A stretch of DNA of 64,000 bases from an uncultured Candidatus Saccharibacteria bacterium (GTDB lineage Bacteria > Patescibacteriota > Minisyncoccia > UBA6257 > 2-01-FULL-56-20): assembly GCA_964361595.1 (NCBI GenBank), contig CAYIAX010000003.1, forward strand, positions 6,071 to 70,070, given 5' to 3'. The notes under the pieces were generated by a model. The model did no database searches. It saw nothing but the letters and a program-made list of their open reading frames with translations, and was not told where the DNA came from. Below are positions 4,391-56,204 of the stretch, piece after piece. The position numbers and the translations under genes are program-made. Position 1 is the first letter of the stretch; each line of letters begins with the position of its first letter.

Positions 4391-5409
4391 GAAGCGTTTA
4401 TTATTCTTTAGTCGCGTTCGCTCTGATTGGCTGCTTTGTTTTTTGGGTATTTTTCACTTACAAGGAGATTTATCTTGCTTATGAGCGGGCAATTCAAAGT
4501 TCTATTCAAGCCAGTATCGTTAAGACACGACTCGCCGATACGTTAGTTAATCAAAAGCGGGAACTTAAACTGGCTTTCGTTGGCGACATTATGCTTTCGC
4601 GCGAAGTGGGAGATATCATGCTCCGCGAGAACGATTTTGCATATCCCTTCCGCGAGACCGCAGAGGCGCTCGCGGGCTACGATCTCACATTCGGCAATCT
4701 CGAAGGCCCAATTTCCGCGCACGGCAGAAACCAGGGGAGCATCTATTCTTTCCGCGCCGACCCGCGAGTGGTGGAGGGACTCGCGGCCGCTGGCTTCAAT
4801 GTTTTATCGCTCGCCAATAACCATATTTGGGATTGGGGCCGTGACGCGCTTGCGGATACGGTCACGCTTTTAGGGGAAAAGAACATCGCGACCGTAGGCG
4901 CGGGCAGAAACGAAGCAGAAGCGAATGCGCCGGCAATCCTCCGCGTCGGCGATGTGCGTGTCGGTTTTTTGGCATACACCGATCTTTATCCCTCGGGTCT
5001 TATCGCGCACGGCGAATTGCCAGGCATAAGCGATTTTTCGCTCGCTAAAGCTACGCAAGCCGTGGCGGATTTAAAGCGCAATGCGGATATTGTTGTCGTC
5101 TCTTTTCATTGGGGCGATGAGTATAAAACTAAAGCGAGTGCGAACCAGCGGAAAATCGCGCATGCCTTAATTGACGCCGGCGCGGATATAATCGCCGGCC
5201 ATCATCCGCATGTGGTGGAAGAAACGGAGCAACATAAGAATGGCTGGATTGCCTACAGCTTGGGAAATTTCATTTTTGACATGACGCGGGCCGGCACGAC
5301 GGAAGGGCTTTTACTTGAAGTTACAGTTAATAATAAATCCGTGAAAAGCGTGACCGTAAGAAAAGTCCGCATAACCATGCCGGATTACATACCCGTGATA
5401 GCGGATTAA
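4387..5409 (+). CDS. CapA/PGA_cap family metallophosphatase-like protein
   Basis: N-terminal TM, then the conserved CapA pattern: LAFVGDIML, SLANNHIWDWG, VVVSFHWGDEY and HHPHVV. Overlaps gap by 4 nt. Confidence 0.7.
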   Translation: MRSVYYSLVAFALIGCFVFWVFFTYKEIYLAYERAIQSSIQASIVKTRLADTLVNQKRELKLAFVGDIMLSREVGDIMLRENDFAYPFRETAEALAGYDLTFGNLEGPISAHGRNQGSIYSFRADPRVVEGLAAAGFNVLSLANNHIWDWGRDALADTVTLLGEKNIATVGAGRNEAEANAPAILRVGDVRVGFLAYTDLYPSGLIAHGELPGISDFSLAKATQAVADLKRNADIVVVSFHWGDEYKTKASANQRKIAHALIDAGADIIAGHHPHVVEETEQHKNGWIAYSLGNFIFDMTRAGTTEGLLLEVTVNNKSVKSVTVRKVRITMPDYIPVIAD

Positions 5410-36439: not shown

Positions 36440-36800
36440 CTCTAGCTTATCAAGTGTTTATACCGAGCTAATCGAAGTGTGCCCTCGGGAAGAAGCGAAC
36501 ATCGGTCGCCGTAGGCAACCTCCTTCAGAACCCTCGGTTCTGAATTCCGCCAGCTGGCGGACTCCTACACGGGAGGAATCTTATACTTTCCTCCCGACCC
36601 CTCCTTCGGTTCAATTCTTCCCTCGTTGCGCCCTCGGGAAGAATTGAACTCCCATCAACCCCTTAGGACGGGGCTGTTCTTCCGTTGAACTACGAGGGCG
36701 AAGATCGTTTGTAAGCTTATCATTTTTATGATATTTTTCAATCGCCGACGAGTTCGTCCAGATTCGCATTTATAGTCCGCACGAGGGGGGGTTACCCTGA
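36440..36800 (+). ncRNA. possible structured non-coding RNA region (unclassified)
   Basis: A 360 bp ORF-poor interval between a tRNA-Ser and a tRNA-Ala. It holds several strong hairpins (14 bp stem GTTCAATTCTTCCC...GGGAAGAATTGAAC; ACGGGAGGAA...TTTCCTCCCG; CAGAACC-CTCG-GTTCTGA) and a direct repeat GCCCTCGGGAAGAA x2. No match to RNase P, tmRNA or SRP consensus could be made by eye. Confidence 0.2.
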
Positions 36801-38326: not shown

Positions 38327-38334
38327 AACCATAC

Positions 38335-38366
38335 CCTTAAAAACTTGAGAACTTGAGATTTTAAGG
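38335..38366. repeat. 32 bp inverted-repeat arm (left) CCTTAAAAACTTGAGAACTTGAGATTTTAAGG
   Basis: Exact reverse complement of 38679-38710. Contains an internal tandem ACTTGAGA x2 flanked by CCTTAAAA/TTTTAAGG. Confidence 0.9.
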
Positions 38367-38387
38367 ATATGGTGCGATAATAAAATC

Positions 38388-38672
38388 ATGGGGAAAATAA
38401 AAACTGCGAGGCAAATGGAACGCCACTTAAAGGGGATGGCCAACCACCACCGCATCAACATTTTACTGCTTATCGCTCAAAGGGACGGAATAACTTTTGA
38501 GGAAATTGCGAGAACCCTAGAGGCAAATGAAAAGACAATTGGTGAACATGCAAGGCGGTTGCATCAAGCGGGGCTGGTTAATAAATCATATCAAGGCAAA
38601 TTTGTGGAATATACACTATCTCCATACGGCAAAATATTCGTCCGTTTTCTTAAATCTTTCCAAAGCATTTAA
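38388..38672 (+). CDS. ArsR-family winged-helix transcriptional regulator
   Basis: HHRINILLLIAQRDGITFEEIARTLEANEKTIGEHARRLHQAGLV is an ArsR/SmtB-type HTH. The gene is bracketed by a perfect 32 bp inverted repeat. Confidence 0.6.
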   Translation: MGKIKTARQMERHLKGMANHHRINILLLIAQRDGITFEEIARTLEANEKTIGEHARRLHQAGLVNKSYQGKFVEYTLSPYGKIFVRFLKSFQSI

Positions 38673-38678
38673 CAACAT

Positions 38679-38710
38679 CCTTAAAATCTCAAGTTCTCAA
38701 GTTTTTAAGG
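38679..38710. repeat. 32 bp inverted-repeat arm (right) CCTTAAAATCTCAAGTTCTCAAGTTTTTAAGG
   Basis: Exact reverse complement of 38335-38366. Confidence 0.9.
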
Positions 38711-38797
38711 GTGTCATTTGGTAATCTGGAGTAATCTGGGCTAAGGTAAGCTGAATATTGGAAAGGATGGTAACTTTGATATATCATAGAGCATCAA

Positions 38798-38870
38798 GGG
38801 CCCGTAGTTCAGCCCCGACGTTGCAAGTCGGGGAGGCCGCGATTGGCTTGGCAGGCCTCATTTGTCCCGA
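38798..38870 (+). pseudogene. tRNA-Ala 5' fragment (degenerate)
   Basis: Starts GGGCCCGTAGTTCAG like the intact tRNA-Ala at 38924, then loses the cloverleaf. Confidence 0.4.
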
Positions 38871-38923
38871 CGCACTTTTAAATAACCTATGATAAAGAAG
38901 TCGGGATCCCGTATGACTTTGGT

Positions 38924-38995
38924 GGGCCCGTAGTTTAGTGGTAAAACGCCTCATTTGCAATGAGGAGAGCGGCGGTTCGATCCCGCCCGGGTCCA
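38924..38995 (+). tRNA. tRNA-Ala (anticodon TGC)
   Basis: Acceptor GGGCCCG/CGGGTCC with G3:U70, D-arm GTTT-AGTGGTA-AAAC, anticodon stem CCTCA/TGAGG, loop TTTGCAA, T-arm GGCGG-TTCGATC-CCGCC, discriminator A. Confidence 0.8.
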
Positions 38996-39029
38996 CACGA
39001 GCCCACCAAAGTCCAGCGGGACAATGTGG

Positions 39030-39160
39030 AGTGGGCGGCCGCCCGGGTCCACGCGTGCTTCGAGCGCACAGGTAGGAAGGTTGGCAGAGTGGACGAATGC
39101 GCCGCACTTGTTCCCGATTTCTATGAATCTTTGATTCGTCGAGAAATCGCAATCCCGCAC
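39030..39160 (+). pseudogene. tRNA fragment cluster (tRNA-Ala 3' piece and tRNA-Ser 5' piece)
   Basis: Contains CGGCCGCCCGGGTCCACGCG (Ala T-arm/acceptor-like) and GGTTGGCAGAGTGGACGAATGCGCCGCACTTG (Ser 5'-half-like). Confidence 0.4.
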
Positions 39161-39165
39161 AAAGC

Positions 39166-39252
39166 GGTGGGGTGGCCGAGTGGTTGAAAGCGCCGCACTT
39201 GAAATGCGGTATACCCGGAAGGGTATCGTGAGTTCGAATCTCACCCCCACCG
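39166..39252 (+). tRNA. tRNA-Ser (anticodon TGA)
   Basis: Acceptor GGTGGGG/CCCCACC, anticodon stem CCGCA/TGCGG, loop CTTGAAA, long variable arm, T-arm GTGAG-TTCGAAT-CTCAC, discriminator G. Confidence 0.8.
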
Positions 39253-39254
39253 CT

Positions 39255-39440
39255 TTGGGCGCGGGAAATGCGGTAAGCCAGAAATGGCTTCGGAGGTTCG
39301 AATCCTCCACCTTCCGCCTAGGGATTAATACCCTTATGGGCCGCACTCGCCCGCCGAAGGCAGGGTCCCTGCCTACCGGCAGGCAGGCGCCCCAGGCGGA
39401 AAATGCGGTTGGGGAGAAATCCCCGTCAGATGCTTTGTAA
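39255..39440 (+). pseudogene. tRNA-Ser-like 3' fragments
   Basis: GAAATGCGGTAAGCCAGAAATGGCTTCGGAGGTTCGAATCCTCCACC is an anticodon-stem/variable arm/T-arm without a 5' half. A second piece, GAAAATGCGGTTGGGGAGAAATCCCC, nearly matches the variable arm of the tRNA-Ser at 36044-36133. Confidence 0.4.
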
Positions 39441-39488
39441 GACACATAATCGAGCGAAAGGAAATCGGTAATATGAAGTGGAATAATT

Positions 39489-40190
39489 ATGACAGGAATA
39501 TTTTTTGCACATCCACATACGCTTCTAGACCAAGTTGGTAAGGTTTTAGAAAAAGTTGGCGCTGAAAAATTCTTTTCAAGCTCGGATGAGGAAGTGAAGA
39601 AAGCCCGAGAAGGATTTGCGGCATATTTCTTCACGCTTACCTTAAAGCAATATCTACGGAGAGATTGGTGGTTGGCGCAGTACGACCAAGCCACTAGAGC
39701 TTACCCAGATTTTGATTTTATATCTTTTGCAGAAAATCCTGACGATATGAAGATGGAGTCTGTAGAGCTAACAGGCATTTACCCGCATTTCAAATCTTTT
39801 GACGAAGCCCTAAAAGTTGTTGAGAAGAAACAGAAGCAATATGGCGACAAGCCATTGAAGTTCAGTTTGTTAGTTTTTGTAAATCACGAAAAAAGCGAGG
39901 AGTGGATTAATCTGCTTAGAAAGAACGTGAGTAGTGAACACCCATTCTTGAGCATATGGACAATACACTTGAGGTTTAAGAAGGGTGGAAAGGAAGTCGG
40001 GAAAGCAGTTGCTCAACGAATTGTACCCTTGCCAGGCCTGAGAATTGAAGCTGACACGGATGATTCTGAAATACACAAGCGACAGCCTCTCCCAAGTTAT
40101 ATGGATCAACATCGGGAAGGTGAACAAACTTATATCACATTCAAGACCGAGTTTATTGATAAAATGCGAAAAAAGGTTGGAGCGTTATAG
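39489..40190 (+). CDS. hypothetical protein (233 aa), AT-rich
   Basis: ORF with a clear start, lower GC than the flanks, immediately downstream of the tRNA fragment cluster. No motif recognised. Confidence 0.5.
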   Translation: MTGIFFAHPHTLLDQVGKVLEKVGAEKFFSSSDEEVKKAREGFAAYFFTLTLKQYLRRDWWLAQYDQATRAYPDFDFISFAENPDDMKMESVELTGIYPHFKSFDEALKVVEKKQKQYGDKPLKFSLLVFVNHEKSEEWINLLRKNVSSEHPFLSIWTIHLRFKKGGKEVGKAVAQRIVPLPGLRIEADTDDSEIHKRQPLPSYMDQHREGEQTYITFKTEFIDKMRKKVGAL

Positions 40191-43301: not shown

Positions 43302-43437
43302 AATATAGCCGTTTTTGGCGAGTCTCGCCTCTGGCGGGAATCTAGAATATGCAAAAACTAAGCAATTCTAGGTACTAGGTTCTGAATTTCCTGCCTACCG
43401 GCAGGCAGGCAGGCAGGTAGGTAGGTTCTAAATTGCA

Positions 43438-48914: not shown

Positions 48915-49050
48915 TGTTTATATGAAAAAGCCGCTTGTGGCGGAGCGCGCAGTTAAGATGGATTAGTCAATTAAAATGGAGTTGAAATTTTGGCCGAAAT
49001 GAGCAATAATGCAGGCGTAATGCGGGTAGCAATTATTTGTTTGAAAATTT

Positions 49051-49800
49051 GTGGAAAGTAAAGTTGTTCAACTTGAAGAATTAGAGCGCCTAAACAGGGG
49101 CTTGGACACCGTATTGGGCACCCGCCTAGAAGCAGGGGTATCTTATAGTGACTCAAAGCAGTTATTCACAATCTTTGTTATTGCGAAGGCCTCTAAAACA
49201 CATGAGGCGATTACCTTCCTTTGTAAAAATGGATTTGGGGAGGATGCTTTTATGCTTAGCAGAACGCTTTTCGAGCTATTGGTAATTTTTTTGTATATAT
49301 TAGCGGATAAGAAAGACGACAGACTAACTAGGTATATGGAATACGACCATGTAACTAGAAAAAAACTTTACGATCATATTGCTACTCGACCCGAACTGCT
49401 TAATGATAAAAGAGCTACGCCTGAAATTTTTCAACAAATACGCAGTGCTTGCGAAAGCGTTAAAGATAATTATGAAAAGCCCTTTACGTGGTCTGATAAA
49501 AGCATTGGAGAGATGTCCAAGGAGGTTGGCAGGTGGGAAACCTACAAAACCGTATATAAACTGCAGTGTATACTTTCGCACTCCGAATCTCGCAGCATGA
49601 ACGAGTATTTTAAAGAGGAAAACGGATCGCTCATTGTTGATATAGGTGCTAAAACCAATTTAATAGAGCAATCTTTAGCAATGAATTTTGACTTCTTTTT
49701 CTCCATCGTTGAGAAGGCCAACGAAGTGTTTTCTTTTGGATTGGAAGAACCGCTTAAAAAAGTGAGCGAAAGGTATGCAGATTTTATTAGTAAGAGATGA
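49051..49800 (+). CDS. hypothetical protein (249 aa), AT-rich accessory gene
   Basis: Clear ORF with lower GC than neighbours. Downstream of three palindromic elements, and ends 4 nt before the next gene. No motif recognised; a weak R-x5-H segment (RYMEYDH) is present. Confidence 0.5.
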   Translation: MESKVVQLEELERLNRGLDTVLGTRLEAGVSYSDSKQLFTIFVIAKASKTHEAITFLCKNGFGEDAFMLSRTLFELLVIFLYILADKKDDRLTRYMEYDHVTRKKLYDHIATRPELLNDKRATPEIFQQIRSACESVKDNYEKPFTWSDKSIGEMSKEVGRWETYKTVYKLQCILSHSESRSMNEYFKEENGSLIVDIGAKTNLIEQSLAMNFDFFFSIVEKANEVFSFGLEEPLKKVSERYADFISKR

Positions 49801-49804
49801 GAAT

Positions 49805-51307
49805 ATGAGCCAAACAACTGCCAATTCTATAACTTTCAGGTATAGCGAGGAAGACAAGCGGCTATTTAAAGATGATCAAAAACAACGCTGGAAAAGCATA
49901 GAACATTTTTATCAAAAACTTAGAGAACGTTGTCTTGAAGAAGTGGATATTCCAATTTCTGCTTCGCATAAAGCATGGATATCGGCAAGAGTTAATCTTC
50001 ATATAACAACTTCGCTAATGAGACTTTTGTATCTCACAGAATCCTTACGCGATGCGTCAATTAATTTTAACTCGGTGGCGGCCGCGATACATATAAAAGC
50101 GATGGTAGAAATACCCCTACATTTGGGATATTTGGTATGGATTCTGGATGGACACGGTGATTTTCAGAGCATAAGGCGAGAATTATCGAAAATTGCATTT
50201 GGTAATCGAGACAAGCAAACAGGTTTAACCGCTAGCAACAAAATATCGCAAAGAACCTTTTATACGCGTTCGGACGCGATGATCAAAAAGTTTTTTAAAG
50301 ACGAGCCGAGCAATATAAACATTTTTGAAACATTGTATAAAGAAGCTAATGCAACAGGCCACCATAACTACGAGGCACGCAACCTTCTTTGTGGAGTCCA
50401 AAATAACGATGTCTGGTGTGTAAAAGATAGAAAAGAATGGTTTGTGTTTATCAGTAATAACATTTTTCAATTTTTTATGCATTGCGAAGCGATACTGGGG
50501 ATGTCCCAAGTATTTCTAGAAACAATCGATCATTACGTTAGTCAACTTCCTGAAAACTTTTCTAAAGAAAGCAATATTGCAATTGGAAAGCAGAAGTTTT
50601 TGGAGATAAAGGGATTTTTCAAGCGGTTAAGCGATGAAATGTGTAATGTTGTTCAAGCTTATTACCTATGGAGCGCACTTGCTTTTGCACGATCAATACC
50701 CGAAGCGGGAAAAGAGCACGCGGAGGAAAACGTTATGATTATGAACAGGCACAAGCATTTCTTTATTCAAACAGAAGATAGTCATCTGCGAGCTTTTATA
50801 ATTGGCATCTCGAAGTTTTTTGATCGAGACCAAAGATCGTTAAGTATCAAACGACTAATAGAGAAAATCGAAGAAAGCAAGGATTTCATAACACCAGAAG
50901 TTGTGCTAGAAGTTTACCCCGATCGATTCAATGGAGATGAGGTGATTCATTACACTCCGTTAGAAGATGGAGATATTCAGTATATAGAAAGTCTGAGGGC
51001 CGACCACGAAGTCGTAATACAGAAACTGAAAGAAATTAGAGACAAGCGACTTGCCCATACAAGTATAGAAATTATTAAAGGCACCTTCGTTCCAAACGAA
51101 GTAGAAAAATTGATTATCGCCATACAAGAAATGTTTAATAAGCTGTCGAGCAGGTTTGATCAATCAACTACCCGTTGGGATCACTTAAAGGAAGGGGCCG
51201 TTATGGATACCGAATTGCTTCTAAGAAGTCTTAAAATGGGCGAGATGCAGAGGATTGCAAAAATAGAAAAAGAATACAAGCAAAAAACGAACGAGAGTTC
51301 TAGTTAA
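49805..51307 (+). CDS. hypothetical protein (about 500 aa), AT-rich accessory gene; alternative upstream start at 49775
   Basis: Long ORF tightly coupled to the 49051 gene. No recognised motif; a weak R-x5-H segment (RDKRLAH) is present. Confidence 0.5.
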   Translation: MSQTTANSITFRYSEEDKRLFKDDQKQRWKSIEHFYQKLRERCLEEVDIPISASHKAWISARVNLHITTSLMRLLYLTESLRDASINFNSVAAAIHIKAMVEIPLHLGYLVWILDGHGDFQSIRRELSKIAFGNRDKQTGLTASNKISQRTFYTRSDAMIKKFFKDEPSNINIFETLYKEANATGHHNYEARNLLCGVQNNDVWCVKDRKEWFVFISNNIFQFFMHCEAILGMSQVFLETIDHYVSQLPENFSKESNIAIGKQKFLEIKGFFKRLSDEMCNVVQAYYLWSALAFARSIPEAGKEHAEENVMIMNRHKHFFIQTEDSHLRAFIIGISKFFDRDQRSLSIKRLIEKIEESKDFITPEVVLEVYPDRFNGDEVIHYTPLEDGDIQYIESLRADHEVVIQKLKEIRDKRLAHTSIEIIKGTFVPNEVEKLIIAIQEMFNKLSSRFDQSTTRWDHLKEGAVMDTELLLRSLKMGEMQRIAKIEKEYKQKTNESSS

Positions 51308-51357
51308 GCGCATTCGGTTCTAATGTTTATTACTGCGGGACTTGGGAATCGACGTCG

Positions 51358-51600
51358 CTACTTCTTTAGTAAAGCTAACTTTTTCTCTCGACGCCAACCT
51401 TTGATTTTCGCTTCCCGTCTTCTTGCTTCAAGCAGGGTTTTAAAATTCTCCGAGTGAACGAGTATAACGGGTCGCCTAATTTTCGTGTAATGTGCGCCCC
51501 GCCTTGAATCATTGTGCTGTTTAAGCCTTCTTTCAAGATTATTGGTGCATCCAACGTAAAGAGATTGGTCGGCGCATTTTAAGATATAGACGAAGTGCAT
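51358..51600 (-). CDS. GIY-YIG nuclease domain protein (YhbQ/UPF0213-like)
   Basis: [28 protein letters not shown] carries the GIY-YIG core Tyr, Arg and Asn residues, in an 80 aa protein. Confidence 0.8.
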
Positions 51601-51712
51601 ACTACCTATAACGTTTCGCTTCCTTGCTCGAATCCTTACATTACTTTCCCTCGTTTCGCTCGGGATAATTGAAAATCTACTCCTCGAAACCTCGGAATGA
51701 TTTTCTAATTAG

Positions 51713-51783
51713 CTGGGGGACTAGGATTCGAACCTAGATTGCATGATTCAGAGTCATGATGCCTACCATTAGCAGATCCCCCA
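51713..51783 (-). tRNA. tRNA-Gln (anticodon CTG)
   Basis: Acceptor TGGGGGA/TCCCCCA with the U1:A72 pair and G73 discriminator typical of bacterial tRNA-Gln, anticodon stem CATGA/TCATG, loop CTCTGAA, T-arm CTAGG-TTCGAAT-CCTAG. Confidence 0.75.
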
Positions 51784-51790
51784 AAGTTGA

Positions 51791-52492
51791 TTATTTGTAC
51801 ATCCTAAATGTAATCATTTCCCGGAATTTTTCAACCTCTGCCCTTTTTCTTAATCGAATGTAGACTTTTCCAATTTCCGGATGAAACCCCAGATTTTTTA
51901 AACCGTGTTCAACTGCATTCAGTAAACTCTTGTTTTTGTTGCAAAACTGGAAGTTATAAGTGCAAGTCGGCAGGTGAATCGAAAGCGAACCTTCGGCCTC
52001 GAATAAACCTTTTAAAAAGCGGATAACATTTGCTCGATTTTCAGAGATCCATTTTGGCACCCGGTAATTAATAGCTTTTCTGTTCCCGGCCGGGATGCCC
52101 AATCTGGCAGAGATCTTCTTTTCATAAAGGCTGATTCGAATATTGTTTTTGTCTTTTACTTTGCTTACCGCGGGATTTTTACCAAATAATTTTTTGGTCA
52201 ATTTTGCATACCGCTCAACGAACCCGCTGTTATTCGAATTACAGGAGATGATAATTCTTTCGCATCGGGGGAAACTGCTGATGTTCCCATCGCCCAGAAC
52301 TACTCCCACATATTCGGCCAGGTCGCCACCGTGGGTAAAGTTTGGATAACTTGTCTTTATCAACCCAATTTTTTTCATCCCTTCCGTCCACCTGGAAAAG
52401 TTATTCAACCCGCGTGCTTTCATGGTGCGAGATATCTTGAGCGCGCGTGAGTCAGATTCTACATTCAAATCCACCTTTACATTATAGCTCAA
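51791..52492 (-). CDS. LAGLIDADG family homing endonuclease (two-motif, single-chain)
   Basis: Two LAGLIDADG motifs, LAEYVGVVLGDGNIS and IRFLKGLFEAEGSLSI, about 100 aa apart. Lower GC than the surroundings. Confidence 0.8.
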   Translation of the reverse strand: MSYNVKVDLNVESDSRALKISRTMKARGLNNFSRWTEGMKKIGLIKTSYPNFTHGGDLAEYVGVVLGDGNISSFPRCERIIISCNSNNSGFVERYAKLTKKLFGKNPAVSKVKDKNNIRISLYEKKISARLGIPAGNRKAINYRVPKWISENRANVIRFLKGLFEAEGSLSIHLPTCTYNFQFCNKNKSLLNAVEHGLKNLGFHPEIGKVYIRLRKRAEVEKFREMITFRMYK

Positions 52493-52587
52493 ATCTCAAA
52501 AATTTACTACCACTAGATTGAAATTAGATTTAAAGTAAAAATCTTGTATAATCATAGTAATCAAAGCTTTCACCAACGAAACAGCGC

Positions 52588-53247
52588 ATGTCAAAGTTAA
52601 TAGAAGATAATCTTATAGGAGCCATTCGCAGTGCTGGAGATGTACTTCTAAAGTGCACGATGATTGCTACCGCAGTAGAATTTTGCGGAAGTTTTTTAAC
52701 TAAGGAAACAAATAAAGGTACTACAGAAAGTAATTTTTTGGAATTTTGGAAAAGTAGATATATACCAAGTAAATATCATGAAATAGGTGAGCTTATGTAC
52801 GAAGTTTTCAGAAATGGGGTTTCGCACAGTTTTATTGCTAAGGGAGGGGTCATTCCAAGCGGCGAAGAGAAAAGCGCCAAAAAGCATTTAGAATTTTTTG
52901 AACAGGGAATTTTTATCTATGTGCCAGAGTTAGAAAAAGACGTTATAGCGGGAATCTCAAGGTTCTTAGAAGATTTAAAAAACAAAAGTGAGTTGCAGGA
53001 AAATTATCGTTTTGTACTTTCCGAACTAAATAGAGTTGGCAAAGAAAGATATGATGAATTTGTAAAAAAATACAAAATCCAAGTAAGCCAGGAAACAATT
53101 GCCGGAGATATTTTCCCAGATATTCAATTTGTTTTAGCTGGTGGGTCTTTGGATTTGATACCGCACCATACAGGCTCAACAATCTCAAAACACATTAAGG
53201 TTGAGATTAAGGTTAAACCAGCTAATGAAGAAAATTTTAAAGCCTAA
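52588..53247 (+). CDS. hypothetical protein (219 aa), AT-rich
   Basis: Clear ORF ending 4 nt before the helicase gene. No motif recognised. Confidence 0.5.
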   Translation: MSKLIEDNLIGAIRSAGDVLLKCTMIATAVEFCGSFLTKETNKGTTESNFLEFWKSRYIPSKYHEIGELMYEVFRNGVSHSFIAKGGVIPSGEEKSAKKHLEFFEQGIFIYVPELEKDVIAGISRFLEDLKNKSELQENYRFVLSELNRVGKERYDEFVKKYKIQVSQETIAGDIFPDIQFVLAGGSLDLIPHHTGSTISKHIKVEIKVKPANEENFKA

Positions 53248-53250
53248 ATT

Positions 53251-54732
53251 ATGGGGATTGTTTTTTGGATCATAATAGGAGCAGTTGGTTGGTCGTTTAT
53301 TTCTAAACGTATTCGTATAAACTCAAACCCAAATGAGGCGACGCCGAAGTATAATCAAGTCATGGGAAACCAAGTGATTGGAAAAAGACGCGAAAGCCGT
53401 CGATTTCTTGCCATAGAAAAGCCCAGGGTTGTATTTTCTGCAGAAAGCAAGAAGGTTCTTAACTTACTTGAAAACACAAGTACAAACGTTTTTATTACTG
53501 GGCGAGCAGGTACGGGCAAGTCGACATTACTGAAGTATTTTCGCGCAACAACAAAAAAGAATATTGCAATTCTTGCTCCAACCGGAGTTGCTGCGGTCAA
53601 TATCCAAGGGCAGACAATCCACTCTTTTTTCAAATTCGGGCCAGATGTTACCGAAGATAAAGTGAGAGCAGTTTATAAAAATCCAGAGGTTTATAAAAAA
53701 TTGGATACAATCATCATCGATGAAATCTCTATGGTTCGTGCTGATTTATTCGATTGCATCGAAAAGTCTCTGCGTGTAAATGGGCCAAGCCCACAAGTGC
53801 CATTTGGCGGAGTTCAAATTATAGTAATTGGAGACTTGTACCAACTTCCACCCGTAGTAACAAATGAAGAAAAGCAAATCTTTGAAACATATTATCATAG
53901 TCCTTATTTTTTCGATTCAAACTCTTATCAAAAAGTTAAGTTTAAGGTTTTAGAGCTTACTCATGTATATCGGCAGTCTGATAAAGATTTTATTGAAGTT
54001 CTTGATGCAATCCGCGTATGTTCGGTAACAGATGACCATCTTAATAAAATAAATCAACAGTTTAGTAGAAATAAGCACAACGAAAATGATTTTAAAATTA
54101 CACTTGTTCCTACTAATGCTATGGCTAATGCAATCAACGCCGTAAAATTAAGCCAGCTTCCCGGAGAGACAAAAAAATATGTTGGTACGATAACGGGGGG
54201 ATTTAATGAAAAAAATTTGCCCACTGCACAGGAACTCTTCCTCAAGGTGGGCTCACAAATTATGCTTCTTAATAACGATCCTCTTTCGCGTTGGATTAAT
54301 GGCGATCTGGCTAAAGTCTTAAAGTTAAATGATGGGAATATTAGAGTGCTTTTTGAAGATGGCACTTATGACGATATTGGGTTTTATAAATGGGATATGA
54401 TACGTTTTATTTACGATGAAGATGATAAAAAGATTAAATCCGAAGTTGTTGGTTCATTTACGCAGCTTCCAGTGCGACTAGCTTGGGCGGTTACTATTCA
54501 CAAAGGACAGGGTAAAACATTCGAAAAAGTTTTCATTGATTTTGGAAGTGGCACATTCGCTCCGGGTCAAGCATATGTTGCCTTAAGTAGGTGTAAATCT
54601 CTTAGCGGGTTATCTCTAAAGAGCCCACTTGAGCATAGGCATATTTTTATTGAACCCAGAATTGGAGAATTCTTAAATGAAGCTATAACGCCAAAAAAGA
54701 GGCGTGCTGAATCAAGCCCGCGACCGCAATGA
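53251..54732 (+). CDS. Pif1/RecD-like superfamily 1 DNA helicase (AAA_30 + UvrD_C_2-like)
   Basis: Walker A TGRAGTGKST, Walker B IIIDEISMV, and the C-terminal VTIHKGQGKTFEKV...AYVALSRCKSL typical of the Pif1/RecD2/TraA-helicase C-terminus. Confidence 0.75.
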   Translation: MGIVFWIIIGAVGWSFISKRIRINSNPNEATPKYNQVMGNQVIGKRRESRRFLAIEKPRVVFSAESKKVLNLLENTSTNVFITGRAGTGKSTLLKYFRATTKKNIAILAPTGVAAVNIQGQTIHSFFKFGPDVTEDKVRAVYKNPEVYKKLDTIIIDEISMVRADLFDCIEKSLRVNGPSPQVPFGGVQIIVIGDLYQLPPVVTNEEKQIFETYYHSPYFFDSNSYQKVKFKVLELTHVYRQSDKDFIEVLDAIRVCSVTDDHLNKINQQFSRNKHNENDFKITLVPTNAMANAINAVKLSQLPGETKKYVGTITGGFNEKNLPTAQELFLKVGSQIMLLNNDPLSRWINGDLAKVLKLNDGNIRVLFEDGTYDDIGFYKWDMIRFIYDEDDKKIKSEVVGSFTQLPVRLAWAVTIHKGQGKTFEKVFIDFGSGTFAPGQAYVALSRCKSLSGLSLKSPLEHRHIFIEPRIGEFLNEAITPKKRRAESSPRPQ

Positions 54733-54832
54733 TCAAATCCCTTATCTTCGACATCGGCGGCGTGATTACTTTGCATCCGAATAGCGCACTACAAATGCGC
54801 CCATCCGAATTAACTGTTTTAATAGCTTAGCG

Positions 54833-54877
54833 GAATCATACGGAAAATCGTACGATTTTCCGTATGATTCTTTTGTT
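54833..54877 (+). terminator. 38 bp perfect palindrome GAATCATACGGAAAATCGTACGATTTTCCGTATGATTC plus TTTTGTT: probable terminator
   Basis: Read directly; reverse complement identical. T-run follows on the plus strand, about 100 nt after the helicase stop. Confidence 0.45.
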
Positions 54878-54968
54878 ACTATAAACACGTGTCAAATCCG
54901 CCCTCGCCTGTTTGGGTGTGGATATAACGGCCTAAAAAGCTACGTGCGCTATGCTACACTATATATAA

Positions 54969-56204
54969 ATGCGCGAACCGAAGGCCGTTAAGGCCGACAT
55001 TGAAAAACAGCTTGCCAATCCGCCGCATAAGGTTTCAATCGTAAACCTGGTGGATCTTTTTGTTGAGTATTCCTACGTCTTGCGGGCCTCGGATATCCAT
55101 ATCGAGCCGGAGGCGGAGGATTTGCGCGTCCGTTTCCGCGTGGACGGCATGCTCACGGACATTTTCGATAAGAAAAACCTAGATAAGGATTTGCACCAGG
55201 AAATCATCACGCGGATCAAGGTCTTGTCCGGCTTGCGGACGGACGAGCACCTCCTACCGCAGGACGGCCGCTTCAAAGTGAAGCTCGAAGGCTTTGGCGA
55301 GGTGGACGTGCGCGTTTCCATCATGCCGACTTATCACGGCGAGAATGCCATTCTCCGGATTTTGGCCGAGACGCAGTCCTTCAAGCTTGAAGACCTGGGT
55401 TTCGACACGGGCGAGCTCGACAAGGTGAAACGGGCAATGCGCAAATCTTACGGCATGATTTTGGCGAACGGCCCCACGGGTTCGGGCAAGTCCACGACGC
55501 TCTACACGATCTTGAAGCAGTTGAACCAGCCAGACGTTTCGATCATCACGATCGAGGATCCGCTCGAGTATTCGATGGGAGGCACGACGCAGATTCAGGT
55601 GAATAACCAGGTGGGCCTCACTTTTGCGAATGGCTTGCGTTCGATTCTGCGGCAAGATCCCAACATTATCATGGTGGGCGAAATCCGCGACCAGGAAACG
55701 GCGGCAATCGCCGTGAATGCCGCTTTGACTGGTCACTTGGTTTTGTCCACACTTCACACGAACGATTCGGCTACGACTTTTCCGCGCCTCATTGATATGG
55801 GCGTGCCGCCTTTCCTTGTGGCTTCAACTATTAACGTAGCGATGGGCCAGCGGCTTGTGCGCATGGTTTGCCAGAAATGCAAAAAGGATCGTGTCTTGAA
55901 CCCGATGGAGGTAAAAAGCTTGAGCGAAATCATTCCGGATCTGAATCCCAAATTATCTCATTTTTACATGGGCGCGGGCTGCGCCGAGTGCAACGGCTCC
56001 GGCTATGCGGGCCGTATCGGCATCCGCGAAGTCTTGGAGGTGAACGAGGACGTGCGCCAGCTGATCATGGGCCGCGCGAACGCGAAACAGATCAAGGACG
56101 CGGCAATTAAGAACGGCATGACGACGATGGTGAAGGACGGCGTGCAGAAAGCGTTGAAGGGATTAACTTCGCTCGAAGAAGTTTTGCGCATTATCCATGA
56201 GTAA
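54969..56204 (+). CDS. pilB: type IV pilus assembly / type II secretion ATPase (PilB/GspE family)
   Basis: Walker A GPTGSGKSTT, Asp box, Walker B IIMVGEIRD, His box LSTLHTND, and tetracysteine CQKC...CAEC. Confidence 0.85.
   Translation: MREPKAVKADIEKQLANPPHKVSIVNLVDLFVEYSYVLRASDIHIEPEAEDLRVRFRVDGMLTDIFDKKNLDKDLHQEIITRIKVLSGLRTDEHLLPQDGRFKVKLEGFGEVDVRVSIMPTYHGENAILRILAETQSFKLEDLGFDTGELDKVKRAMRKSYGMILANGPTGSGKSTTLYTILKQLNQPDVSIITIEDPLEYSMGGTTQIQVNNQVGLTFANGLRSILRQDPNIIMVGEIRDQETAAIAVNAALTGHLVLSTLHTNDSATTFPRLIDMGVPPFLVASTINVAMGQRLVRMVCQKCKKDRVLNPMEVKSLSEIIPDLNPKLSHFYMGAGCAECNGSGYAGRIGIREVLEVNEDVRQLIMGRANAKQIKDAAIKNGMTTMVKDGVQKALKGLTSLEEVLRIIHE

Follow-up and report, generated by a model that had tools for sequence, protein, structure and literature searches.

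Combining sequence dissection, excision tests and comparison with related genomes, we propose that the tRNA-rich region at positions 38798-39440 of the window (the whole stretch of DNA analysed here, 64,000 nucleotides) is probably a nest of small, ORF-less, hairpin-ended mobile cassettes, which insert into tRNA genes and bring a complete replacement tRNA with them. Two resident genes, tRNA-Ala(TGC) and tRNA-Ser(TGA), are each cut by a cassette bearing a complete tRNA; therefore, the "intact" tRNAs of the region are the cargo, and the "fragments" the halves of the resident genes. We infer the movement of the cassettes from comparative presence and absence. The cassette family is apparently undescribed and widespread in related bacteria; no earlier description of nested tRNA genes, tRNA introns in CPR bacteria, Patescibacteria MITEs or GIY-YIG genes with tRNAs in Parcubacteria came up in searches of open-access papers and preprints.

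Organisation of the nested locus

Both ARAGORN and Rfam recognised an intact tRNA-Ala(TGC) (72.6 bits with Rfam) and an intact tRNA-Ser(TGA) (58.5 bits) lying amid fragments, as a preliminary description of this DNA had it. The fragments it had listed were recovered as well: a degenerate Ala 5' half (in two pieces), an Ala-like T-arm/acceptor piece, a Ser-like 5' piece, a Ser-like 3' portion and a variable-arm fragment close to the tRNA-Ser(CGA) of the window (in two pieces, with the 24 nt AAATGCGGTTGGGGAGAAATCCCC identical to that gene). The sequence indicates a point that it had missed, namely that the Ser 5' piece and the Ser 3' piece belong together, as halves of one gene. The parts of the locus, and one related feature outside it, are as follows.

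38798-38812, + strand: outer (overwritten) tRNA-Ala(TGC), 5' piece a; 5' strands of the acceptor and the D stem, plus nt 8-9 (GGGCCCGTAGTTCAG)
38813-38833, + strand: GC-rich, perfectly paired hairpin CCCCGAC-GTTGCAA-GTCGGGG, an insertion within the D loop of the dead outer copy of Ala
38834-38854, + strand: unassignable filler between the D-loop hairpin and outer Ala 5' piece b
38855-38864, + strand: outer tRNA-Ala, 5' piece b; covers the 5' strand of the anticodon stem and loop positions 32-35 (GCCTCATTTG) and stops at the insertion point, after TTTG
38865-39021, + strand: Ala cassette, 157 bp; left hairpin, leader, cargo tRNA-Ala(TGC), trailer
38865-38906, + strand: Ala cassette, left hairpin TCCCGAC...GTCGGGA
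38907-38923, + strand: Ala cassette, leader TCCCGTATGACTTTGGT
38924-38996, + strand: intact tRNA-Ala(TGC), counted as cargo over 38924-38995
38996-39021, + strand: Ala cassette, trailer CACGAGCCCACCAAAGTCCAGCGGGA
39022-39052, + strand: outer tRNA-Ala, 3' piece; from loop 36-38 and the 3' strand of the anticodon stem (one mismatch) through the T stem, its loop deleted, to the acceptor 3' strand and discriminator
39053-39074, + strand: Ala-Ser spacer, 22 nt; hairpin GCGTGC-TTCGA-GCGCAC between outer Ala and outer Ser
39075-39110, + strand: outer (overwritten) tRNA-Ser(TGA), 5' half; acceptor, D arm, anticodon-stem 5' strand, loop 32-35, ending at the insertion point after CTTG
39111-39265, + strand: Ser cassette, 155 bp; left-arm module, leader, cargo tRNA-Ser(TGA), trailer
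39111-39157, + strand: Ser cassette, left-arm module TTCCCGATTTCT...AGAAATCGCAATCCCG
39158-39165, + strand: Ser cassette, leader CACAAAGC
39166-39253, + strand: intact tRNA-Ser(TGA), counted as cargo over 39166-39252
39253-39265, + strand: Ser cassette, trailer CTTTGGGCGCGGG
39266-39316, + strand: outer tRNA-Ser(TGA), 3' half; from loop 36-38 and the 3' strand of the anticodon stem through the long variable arm and the T arm to the acceptor 3' strand and discriminator
39317-39337, + strand: short AT-rich hairpin spacer (AGGGATTAATACCCT), read from the sequence
39338-39428, + strand: third, older remnant; middle of a Ser(CGA)-like tRNA, two pieces around a cargo-less insert
39338-39349, + strand: Ser(CGA)-like remnant, left piece GGGCCGCACTCG, up to the junction
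39350-39400, + strand: 51-nt cargo-less insert CCCGCC...GGCGGA with two palindromes, splitting the Ser(CGA)-like remnant
39401-39428, + strand: Ser(CGA)-like remnant, right piece, AAATGCGG from the junction, plus variable arm
36479-36500, - strand: partial duplicate of tRNA-Arg(CCT), T loop to 3' end, the intact gene (36628-36699) lying 128 nt upstream

The fragments were set against chance by comparing their best local alignment to the seven tRNAs of the window with those of 300 dinucleotide shuffles. The segments 38997-39165 (score 45) and 39254-39440 (score 63) beat all shuffles (maximum 26 for each; 0/300 reaching the score), and the score of 25 for 38798-38923 was reached by four of the 300. 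Taken alone, the 15-nt Ala 5' piece is marginal; its position and the relative L181 argue for its assignment. At 38784-39152 and 38951-39694, the two long ORFs of the minus strand lie antisense to both tRNA genes and represent artefacts, and the flanking genes (encoding an HTH protein and a 233-aa protein) are AT-rich (GC 0.41, versus 0.49 for the window), both as previously claimed.

Removing the 155 bp at 39111-39265 yields a perfect 89-nt tRNA-Ser(TGA) cloverleaf. The outer Ser halves differ from the intact Ser gene at 20/89 positions through paired (compensatory) changes; their 3' half is unlike the intact gene in the T arm, the variable arm and the acceptor, and its pairing partner is the upstream 5' half. 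Relative to both the inner gene and Ser(CGA), such paired changes occur in the acceptor and variable-arm stems of the outer Ser, and since these stems changed in pairs, the outer gene was functional until recently. As it is still pristine, the Ser insertion would be recent, although selection, instead of recency, could also have kept it so. Over about 22 nt, the anticodon arm is the same in the inner and outer copies, and the whole Ser unit folds as a tRNA within a tRNA (z = -5.0).

The Ala nest has the same layout, with a decayed outer copy. We regard this copy as dead because ARAGORN finds no tRNA in its joined pieces; it carries a hairpin in the D loop, has lost the T loop (the T stem being kept) and has one stem mismatch. 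Its 5' piece a is identical to the intact Ala gene at 14/15 positions and aligns to the outer 5' half of L181, and piece b is identical at 10/10 positions to 38948-38957 of the intact gene, with its junction as in L181. The D-loop hairpin is missing from the outer Ala of L181 (34-nt alignment gap), and analogous hairpins occur in the loops of dead copies in L005, L020 and L083.

In both cassettes the leader and the trailer pair with each other, extending the acceptor stem of the complete tRNA, which has the same anticodon as the interrupted one; in the Ala cassette they form a 25-nt inverted repeat, and both match those of L181 and L162. The inserts end in T(T)CCCG...CGGG(A) and lie 3' of TTG (position 35) in the anticodon loop, with no target duplication. 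The third remnant is split at the same loop position as the outer Ala and Ser genes and is older than the events that struck them. The palindrome CCTGCCTACCGGCAGGCAGG of its 51-nt insert is found again at 43390-43409 and in other genomes.

Relatives and the wider cassette family

The sequence of the locus is identical in three independent Hainich assemblies; an apparent 17-bp indel in a fourth (L002) proved to be a scaffolding run of N at 39110/39111, its sole difference. The arrangement is not frozen in related genomes, which have simple adjacent Ala-Ser genes, partial remnants or triple nests. In L005 and L011, Ala(TGC) and Ser(TGA) are simple and 15 nt apart, with the tRNA synteny kept. The ancestral order at the locus was UppS, tRNA-Ala(TGC), a short spacer and tRNA-Ser(TGA), and the 22-nt spacer of the window keeps the close Ala-Ser spacing. 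L181 has the intact counterpart of the Ala nest; its inner and outer Ala copies are 85% identical with automated excision boundaries, and near-identical by eye.

We read the comparison of L007 with L005 as an empty-site proof at the sequence level, the filled site differing by a clean insertion. The simple tRNA-Thr(CGT) of L007 corresponds to the outer halves of L005 (100% and 95% identity, 3' flank included), where a cassette of about 130 bp with a new Thr(CGT) sits in the anticodon loop; L005 Thr also has a 20-bp palindrome in the T loop, and an ambiguous TAAA overlap at the site. The older Val nests common to L005 and L007 have decayed outer copies. L020 contains three nested Ser levels, of which the middle one is of the same type as the outer Ser of the window and level 1 is decayed; the leader/trailer helices of L020 have changed in a compensatory manner. 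Both Ser types, inner and outer, exist as live genes elsewhere.

The leader and trailer of the window's inner Ser also flank the simple Ser(TGA) genes of L011 and L005, which fits old, fully resolved replacements; these sequences could also be ordinary tRNA-gene processing signals. Their presence around the simple Ser gene of L011 had suggested that the inner gene is the resident and that the outer halves were added later, an order ruled out by the empty site of L005/L007, the excision tests and the triple nest of L020.

A metagenome scan turned up 117 distinct units, present in groundwater Patescibacteria in at least 119 copies; the sample is biased because the search pattern was taken from the Ser-type left arm. 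The units carry a Ser(TGA/GGA/GCT/CGA), Gly, Val, Arg, Ala or Cys tRNA, or no cargo, and the nested architecture occurs in more than 100 contigs from many projects, curated MAGs included. In 19 independent units, computational excision (the whole inner tRNA removed, same amino acid, junction at the anticodon) restored an intact outer tRNA for the same amino acid. The excised length is 142-177 bp (289 bp for one deeper nest, L020), and the junctions are uniform, reading ...TTG/TTCCCG...GCGGGA/... (slashes marking the junctions), with target duplication at none. The inner and outer copies are 59-85% identical and co-oriented in all 19 units, none being anti-oriented. Among 98 unique target contexts, T occupies -2 in 90%, G occupies -1 in 66%, and T or A occupies -3 in 81%. 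The left-arm hairpin covaries (101/105 and 97/105 paired, with 3-4 pair types; re-pairing controls, 65 and 76), and the leader and trailer pair over at least 5 bp in 18/34 units (control mean, 6.5). Insertions in the T loop were also seen among the nests. Copies without cargo number 66, and none was found inside an otherwise intact tRNA; their positions are dead halves (L132, L205, L178), a dead 5S fragment (L120) and surroundings other than tRNAs. Neither the region nor its relatives matched a known intron, ribozyme or sRNA in Rfam. Promoter prediction on the window's left-arm copy gave none, and a putative sigma-70 promoter (TTGTCT-17 nt-TAGAAT) lies in the left arm of some copies.

Proposed mode of movement and rival explanations

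Both resident tRNA genes were interrupted cleanly in the anticodon loop, after ...TTG, by a cassette of about 155 bp. The cassettes may be selfish, non-autonomous elements moved in trans. Considering the single-copy tRNA sets, insertion would kill the target, and the survivors would be those insertions whose cargo replaces the lost function. Alternatively, a nested allele might spread by homologous repair, with the outer halves as homology arms. Either route, selection or homologous repair, would account for the strict same-identity, same-orientation nesting and for the Russian dolls; strict cognate nesting is not predicted by a simple transposon targeting W-T-G without strong selection or homology-driven spread. 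We are evenly divided over a wider proposal, that an undescribed class of tiny gene-less elements in groundwater Patescibacteria kills and replaces tRNA genes in one step, with repeated rounds producing Russian dolls and a horizontal turnover of tRNAs resembling a gene drive, possibly mobilised by structure-specific GIY-YIG nucleases. Such tiny elements would insert in the anticodon loop, less often in the T or D loop, and hold a complete, divergent copy of the same tRNA inside a terminal hairpin.

The window's cassettes contain no ORF, hence no encoded mobilising enzyme. In agreement with the preliminary description, no integrase or recombinase was found among the about 30 ORFs screened in the window; beside the element, no transposase or integrase recurs in 204 loci, where only GIY-YIG and housekeeping genes do. 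GIY-YIG is the sole nuclease family recurring next to the element, and 8/13 of its ORFs lie within 150 nt of a tRNA (about 11% expected). When L005 is compared with L011, an insertion in Ala(TGC) bears a GIY-YIG gene and begins with similar hairpins of the T(C)CGA type, and the GIY-YIG insertion in Ala(GGC) of L005 starts with an exact TCCCGA...TCGGGA hairpin. A GIY-YIG gene lies within or beside the mobile segment in L005 (twice), L010/L011, L093, L162 and L165, and is absent from the window's two cassettes, the only such gene of the window (51358-51600) being 12 kb away. One candidate mobiliser would be the small GIY-YIG nucleases, acting by homing or by structure-specific cutting of tRNA-gene stem-loops; another would be a single-strand transposase of the HUH type, the element imitating the insertion rules of such enzymes. 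The 233-aa ORF beside the locus was rejected as a mobilising enzyme: its homologs lie in methylase/GmrSD-HNH defence islands with neither tRNA nor module nearby, and it is therefore unrelated cargo.

The preliminary description saw the fragments as scars of integration and excision. That mobile DNA repeatedly hit tRNA genes stands; the classical integrase mechanism, in which islands repeatedly integrated and excised at tRNA genes left attL/attR remnants before the islands and their integrase were lost, is not supported, and we consider it very unlikely. It draws on the facts that tRNA genes are classic integration sites and anticodon loops known crossover points, on the foreign-looking AT-richness of the flanking HTH and 233-aa genes, on the match of the Ala 3' piece to the 3' end of the intact gene (18/20 nt) and on the Arg(CCT) 3' duplicate, which resembles an ordinary att-type repeat. 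Yet classical scars repeat the tRNA 3' segment directly, identical to the restored gene, on both sides of an island, whereas here 5' halves are present alongside the 3' halves, the Ser halves complement each other rather than the intact gene, no duplicated core occurs at the junctions (neither in the Ala and Ser nests nor at the 19 reconstructed sites), and the inserted DNA is just about 155 bp long and holds a whole tRNA with leader and trailer. Together with the recurrence of this architecture at 19 or more unrelated loci, with uniform TTCCCG...CGGGA ends, and with the failure to find an integrase in the window or recurring beside the element, these features largely refute integrase scars for the Ala and Ser nests. 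Excision might instead occur in the RNA, the insert being a new bacterial tRNA intervening sequence, marked for removal by the TCCCG/CGGGA closing helix, and both tRNAs maturing. The perfect outer Ser obtained without the insert, the nested cloverleaf fold, the conserved and mutually pairing insert ends at a fixed loop position and the constant co-orientation of the copies would suit it, and the module's variable orientation is compatible with it, given near-palindromic ends. We nevertheless rate it as improbable as the integrase scars: the host is a groundwater bacterium of the Parcubacteria (its neighbouring genes encode RF2, FtsE/X, Alr and UppS) with no known tRNA splicing endonuclease, bulge-helix-bulge geometry was not found when the junctions were read by hand, no Rfam intron or ribozyme family matches the region, outer copies decay freely (Ala in the window, level 1 in L020, Val in L005/L007, T-loop insertions), and each live nest has a redundant inner tRNA, with no cargo-less copy in an otherwise intact tRNA (0/66).

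Local rearrangement without any mobile element, that is, tandem Ala-Ser duplications followed by deletions and gene conversion, is still less credible. Clusters of tRNA genes duplicate readily, the shared anticodon arms (about 22 nt) suggest some gene conversion, and the two Ala copies of L181 are very similar; but the halves would have to come from different duplicates and nonetheless be perfectly complementary and divergent from the inner copy, dozens of unrelated loci, with different tRNAs, share both the bond at which the junctions lie and the terminal motifs, and empty and filled sites differ by a clean insertion. A metagenome assembler mis-joining reads from strains with different tRNA alleles has a negligible chance of being the cause: the scaffolding gap of L002 falls exactly at 39110/39111, but the three independent assemblies agree, the shared repeats are merely 12-22 nt long, and the more than 100 contigs with the same architecture come from many projects and include curated MAGs. 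The GC-rich tRNAs with complementary halves prompted us to consider archaeal split or intron-containing tRNAs, which the bacterial neighbours, the Parcubacteria relatives of UppS and the lack of a fitting motif led us to reject; reading the junctions by hand, we found no 3-nt bulge/4-bp helix/3-nt bulge yielding the Ser anticodon. A group I intron was also dismissed, since the insert has 155 nt, 87 of which are tRNA, and a catalytic core needs at least about 200 nt; Rfam returned no group I match even at E up to 10. We therefore retain cassettes that carry a replacement tRNA.

Known systems and significance

The insertion rules and architecture of the cassettes recall the IS91 family (IS91, IS801, IS1294; HUH Y2 transposase), rolling-circle ISs with the targets CTTG/GTTC/CTCG, T being invariant at position 2 (PMC13181058). 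Both lack target-site duplication (19 clean excisions here), use a short target with T at position 2 (W-T-G here, mostly CTTG or TTTG), capture adjacent DNA as cargo and have functionally distinct ends, each with a subterminal palindrome (here, a covarying left-arm hairpin and a terminal CCCG...CGGG hairpin). Unlike these ISs, the cassettes are 70-180 bp long with no ORF and no transposase in, near or recurring beside them, their ends form a short inverted repeat (TTCCCG/CGGGA), they carry as cargo one tRNA, placed in the terminal hairpin's loop, and they are strongly associated with cognate tRNA anticodon loops. In size (70-180 bp), non-coding nature, copy number (at least 119) and terminal inverted repeats, they resemble MITEs; unlike the MITEs derived from DDE transposases, they made no target-site duplication at the 19 reconstructed sites.

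SegB of phage T4 is a free-standing GIY-YIG homing endonuclease of a tRNA cluster, which recognises a conserved tRNA-gene motif and drives the inheritance of itself and the neighbouring tRNA genes (PMC2330249). Here too small GIY-YIG genes occur among tRNA genes: they abut tRNA 5' ends, are polymorphic in presence or absence (L005 versus L011) and are found inside nests (L162). However, the window's two cassettes have no ORF, SegB replaces homologous regions by co-conversion and leaves no nested half-genes, and the CPR GIY-YIG proteins, unlike Seg proteins and I-TevI, are 80-90-aa catalytic domains without DNA-binding extension, the activity of which is predicted. The insertions in CPR rRNA genes, mostly at the tops or bases of stem-loops, some with LAGLIDADG or GIY-YIG genes and others short and ORF-less (PMC11270868), affect the same bacterial group and also target structural-RNA genes; they are removed from the transcript (introns/IVS) and leave the host gene functional, whereas the cassettes would kill the host gene and replace it with their cargo, and tRNA genes go unmentioned in that work.

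The integrative elements that target tRNA genes (PMC9897764), often in the anticodon loop, likewise keep a functional tRNA and leave non-functional tRNA fragments that confuse annotation. These kilobase-long, integrase-encoding elements restore the 3' part only, via an identical att core, and leave 3' fragments only, whereas the cassettes deliver a whole independent tRNA, both old halves stay and no core is duplicated. The Dada DNA transposons (PMC8869645) also insert specifically, at fixed positions, in small-RNA genes including tRNA genes; they are eukaryotic and autonomous, bring no replacement gene, and their multicopy targets make disruption harmless. The split, permuted and multi-intron tRNA genes of archaea (PMC3218864, PMC4090602) have halves with complementary flanks, inserts in the D, anticodon and T loops, and nested folds whose likeness is superficial. 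They need a bulge-helix-bulge, a ligase and a splicing endonuclease, and there the working molecule is the interrupted tRNA itself; the cassettes, in contrast, reside in a bacterium, show no such motif, and the copies they interrupt decay.

If true, our proposal would reveal a new survival strategy for transposons: by bringing a spare copy of the gene that it knocks out, a tiny parasite could persist in a minimal genome with single-copy essential tRNA genes. It would also explain horizontal exchange of tRNA genes in Patescibacteria (inner and outer copies being 15-41% different) and would lie behind many of the "tRNA fragments" and spurious ORFs annotated in CPR genomes. Russian-doll nests would form an ordered record of successive invasions, usable for dating. 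Furthermore, the proposal suggests a role, open to testing, for the GIY-YIG proteins of 80-90 aa that are abundant and uncharacterised in CPR bacteria, and points to a possible tool, in the form of an enzyme recognising tRNA-gene stem-loops or a short W-T-G target. The same phenomenon is seen outside 38798-39440 in the Arg(CCT) duplicate (36479-36500), with hairpins lying between the duplicate and the intact gene.

Split tRNA genes and the cassettes between their halves

ARAGORN predicted seven tRNAs across the window and, together with Rfam, bore out the intact tRNA-Ala(TGC) and tRNA-Ser(TGA) of the preliminary description. All the tRNA fragments listed there were recovered by local alignment of the three inter-tRNA segments with the tRNAs of the window: two segments scored 45 and 63, far beyond the maximum of 26 reached by 300 dinucleotide shuffles, whereas the 15-nt Ala 5' piece is marginal alone (4/300 shuffles reach its score). 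The two long minus-strand ORFs, which cross both tRNA genes in antisense, were rightly taken for artefacts. The neighbouring HTH gene and 233-aa ORF are indeed AT-rich (GC 0.41, versus 0.49 for the window). The pieces are not a random graveyard. Resident (outer) genes are split into halves around an ORF-less cassette carrying an intact (inner) tRNA, as follows (the bar marks the insertion point).

38798-38812 and 38855-38864: outer Ala 5' pieces, ending TTTG|
38865-39021: Ala cassette, 157 bp (hairpin, leader, intact tRNA-Ala(TGC), trailer)
38924-38996: intact tRNA-Ala(TGC) (ARAGORN; Rfam 72.6 bits)
39022-39052: outer Ala 3' piece
39075-39110: outer Ser 5' piece, ending ...CCGCACTTG
Ser cassette, part 1: 47-nt hairpin module, TTCCCGATTTCT...AGAAATCGCAATCCCG
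Ser cassette, part 2: 8-nt leader
Ser cassette, part 3: intact tRNA-Ser(TGA), 39166-39253 (ARAGORN; Rfam 58.5 bits)
Ser cassette, part 4: 13-nt trailer, pairing with the leader and ending CGGG
39266-39316: outer Ser 3' piece, starting AAATGCGG...
39338-39428: third piece, from the middle of a Ser(CGA)-like tRNA, interrupted at the loop position of the other splits (CTCG|)

The Ser 5' and 3' pieces are two halves of one gene: removing the intervening 155 bp of the Ser cassette restores a perfect 89-nt type-II tRNA-Ser(TGA). Its acceptor and variable-arm stems differ by paired changes from both the inner gene and tRNA-Ser(CGA), which argues that the outer Ser was functional until recently. The outer type is a live gene at two other loci (L140 and L196, 85-87% identity), and the inner type likewise at L014 and L121 (90-91%). 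The Ala gene is laid out in the same way; its outer copy lies 22 nt from the outer Ser and is dead (perfect hairpin inside the D loop, T loop gone, one stem mismatch). Another contig (L181) holds an intact counterpart of this nest, with matching leader and trailer. The insert in the Ser(CGA)-like piece is 51 nt long and cargo-less, lacking a tRNA (CCCGCC...GGCGGA).

The locus has one and the same sequence in three independent Hainich groundwater assemblies; a fourth (L002) differs solely by a scaffolding N run (5381-5397, window 39110/39111), placed exactly where the cassette adjoins the 5' half of the outer Ser, at a 12-nt anticodon-arm repeat. As the architecture is replicated across assemblies and projects, an assembly artefact is excluded; short-read assemblies are likely prone to fragment at such nests, leaving them under-reported.

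Other remnants lie nearby. A duplicate of tRNA-Arg(CCT), from T loop to 3' end, occurs at 36479-36500 (minus strand); 128 nt separate it from the intact gene upstream, and this stretch contains three hairpins. In the same tRNA cluster, the relatives L005, L010 and L007 carry a Ser(CGA) 5' fragment ending CTCG|. A 20-nt palindrome, CCTGCCT(A/G)CCGG(C/T)AGGCAGG, is present in both orientations in several genomes and classes of Patescibacteria (window 39368-39387 and 43390-43409; L005 15851-15870; L011 1733-1752; L041 1278-1297 and 2689-2708), and the copy in the RF2-FtsE spacer of the window precedes CAGG/TAGG repeats. The palindrome seems to represent a mini-palindromic mobile or repeat element of its own.

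Residents and newcomers

The neighbouring genes are bacterial (DEAD-box helicase, UppS, alanine racemase, RF2, FtsE/X), and the relatives of UppS are Parcubacteria/Paceibacterota near Candidatus Liptonbacteria, the best usable ones being 54-58% identical. Relatives keep the order Ser(CGA)-Arg(CCT)-Ala(GGC)-[Phe]-UppS-Ala(TGC)-Ser(TGA)-...-Thr(CGT), and in L005 and L011 a gap of 15 nt separates Ala(TGC) from Ser(TGA), both of them simple genes, so that the outer genes of the window stand in the ancestral arrangement. tRNA-Thr(CGT) is simple in L007 and split in L005 into two halves, 100% and 95% identical to the L007 gene with a matching 3' flank, which marks the outer gene as resident and the inner one as newcomer. 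The L005 halves flank a cassette of about 130 bp (leader TCCCTACACC..., a different tRNA-Thr(CGT), trailer ...GGTGCGGGGA); in addition, a copy of the 20-nt palindrome has entered this dead tRNA-Thr cleanly and precisely inside the T loop. In L020, Ser is nested at three levels: the middle one is of the window's outer type, flanked by the leader and trailer found around the window's inner Ser, and the innermost leader/trailer pair shows compensatory changes (CCCGCACAAAGC/GCTTTGTGCGGG to CCTGTGAAAAGC/GCTTTTCACAGG). In the Val(TAC) nest that L005 and L007 share, decay of the outer copy is plain to see. Placed in the resulting decay series, the Ser insertion of the window counts as young and the Ala insertion as older.

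A family of tRNA-carrying elements

The left arm was found upstream of differing cargos. At least 119 stretches, mostly from groundwater, came out of one metagenome scan for its signature, a sample biased by the search pattern. Among the matches listed, there are 117 distinct units, some carrying Ser(TGA/GGA/GCT/CGA), Gly(CCC), Val(TAC), Arg(GCG), Ala(TGC/CGC) or Cys(GCA) and the others no cargo. Excision in silico of 19 units among these matches left an intact outer tRNA of matching amino acid, joined at the anticodon; 142-177 bp were removed (289 bp in one deeper nest, L020). The junctions are uniform (...TTG|TTCCCG ... GCGGGA|...) and none of the 19 shows a target duplication; inner and outer genes are co-oriented in 19/19 (0 anti-oriented), with an identity of only 59-85%. 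Elements insert at W-T-G|, behind position 34 or 35 according to the anticodon, with T at -2 in 90% of 98 unique contexts among the matches listed; sites in the T loop (TT|CGA, TTC|GAAT) and D loop also occur. The module hairpin covaries at the positions left free by the search pattern (101/105 and 97/105 paired, 3-4 pair types, versus 65 and 76 in controls), and leader/trailer pairing adds 5 bp or more to the acceptor stem in 18/34 units, versus a control mean of 6.5.

In cargo-less units the terminal CCCG...CGGG[A/G] helix closes over only 4-30 nt. Such copies lie in dead outer halves (L132, L205, L178), a dead 5S rRNA fragment (L120) and other contexts. On the L120 minus strand (module at 1121-1173), the element follows ...GGAATG| in a duplicated 5S fragment, adjoining a 5S rRNA gene that, judged by eye, seems intact; the family is thus not confined to tRNA genes. 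A recurrent cargo-less class, ...GGCTATATG|module, is found at an orthologous site, immediately ahead of a cobalamin-riboswitch-like sequence (L098, L100, L133, L164, L167, L170, L177, L184); the left arm of some copies holds a good sigma-70-like promoter (TTGTCT-17 nt-TAGAAT), suggesting that the element may donate promoters. Separately, in L090 (332-644) a tRNA-Tyr(GTA) contains an insert of about 245 nt behind CTGT|. Its 5' exon ends in U and the insert in G, a group I intron trait, and the insert has no Rfam match at the gathering threshold.

Origin of the nests and candidate enzymes

The preliminary description read the fragments as scars of site-specific integration and excision at tRNA genes. 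As integrase att scars, the fragments fail to fit: 5' halves are present, the outer halves are complementary to each other, no core is duplicated, the "island" is just 155 bp, and no recombinase was found among about 30 screened window ORFs or the genes recurring at 204 loci. Duplication and deletion without a mobile element cannot explain halves that are complementary yet divergent, nor uniform junctions. Given the near-palindromic ends of the element, an intron spliced from the outer tRNA at the RNA level is conceivable but improbable: the host is a bacterium, there is no bulge-helix-bulge motif and no Rfam match, outer copies decay freely, and cargo-less copies do not interrupt otherwise intact tRNAs (0/66 among the matches listed).

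From these comparisons, we showed at the sequence level that a self-contained tRNA unit was inserted cleanly, with site preference and as DNA, into the cognate tRNA gene, and that the cargo, by the same comparisons, is of horizontal origin. Nesting occurred repeatedly, and overwritten copies decay. The elements are presumably mobile. We propose that they are selfish and non-autonomous, and that an insertion would survive only where the cargo supplies the lost function; alternatively, nested alleles may spread by homologous repair with the outer halves as arms, in a homing-like manner.

For a mobile cassette, there are two candidate leads to the enzyme, IS91-like transposition and small GIY-YIG nucleases. 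IS91-family rolling-circle elements insert without duplication beside a short target with an invariant T at position 2, abutting one end, and have subterminal palindromes and variable captured cargo (PMC13181058). The cassettes are alike in lacking duplication, in the short T-at-2 target at one end, in the subterminal palindromes and in the variable cargo; no transposase was found among genes recurring beside the element at 204 loci. At these loci, small GIY-YIG genes are the only recurring mobile-type family. Of 13 GIY-YIG ORFs, eight are located no more than 150 nt from a tRNA (about 11% expected), and in seven cases the gene directly adjoins the 5' end of a tRNA in the same orientation. L005 and L011 differ by a 341-bp GIY-YIG insertion in tRNA-Ala(TGC) starting with similar hairpins (TCCGAC...GTCGGA); another, in L005 Ala(GGC), starts with an exact TCCCGA...TCGGGA hairpin, and L162 has a GIY-YIG gene within an Ala nest. 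Phage T4 offers a precedent by analogy in SegB, a GIY-YIG enzyme that recognises a motif in tRNA genes and promotes the spread of neighbouring tRNA genes (PMC2330249); the link to the cassettes is a candidate one.

The open-access literature yielded no nested tRNA genes, tRNA-carrying mini-elements or CPR tRNA-gene insertions. Mobile elements that target a tRNA gene while keeping its function are known, as a concept, from integrative elements; what appears new is a gene-less hairpin element delivering a complete replacement gene within the anticodon loop, and the resulting Russian dolls. A survey of CPR rRNA insertion sequences nowhere mentions tRNA (PMC11270868).

Three other genes of the window are as follows.

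39489-40190, plus strand: 233-aa ORF, no known domain
51358-51600, minus strand: GIY-YIG gene, 80 aa (Pfam E = 5e-18), beside tRNA-Gln(CTG) and adjoining the LAGLIDADG gene
51791-52492, minus strand: LAGLIDADG_3 gene

A perfect 36-bp inverted repeat (ACCCTTAAAAACTTGAGAACTTGAGATTTTAAGGAT; 38333-38368 and 38677-38712) brackets the AT-rich ArsR-like HTH gene (ORF 38388-38672), which is missing from the UppS-to-tRNA-Ala gap of relatives; the arrangement resembles either a small insertion bounded by TIRs or a segment able to invert. The 233-aa ORF has about 150 homologs across Parcubacteria (64-90% identity, far above the 58-69% of the neighbouring UppS). It is solitary in the window; at other loci it comes right after an EcoRI-type methylase and a GmrSD_N/HNH nuclease, which makes it part of a mobile defence island. 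An AT-rich island at about 49000-55000 (GC about 0.38) holds DUF5677, an AbiU2-type HEPN, the GIY-YIG gene, tRNA-Gln(CTG), LAGLIDADG_3 and a PIF1-like helicase, with a possible tRNA 3' remnant (CGATTCCCAAGTCCCGCAG) right behind the stop codon of the GIY-YIG gene.
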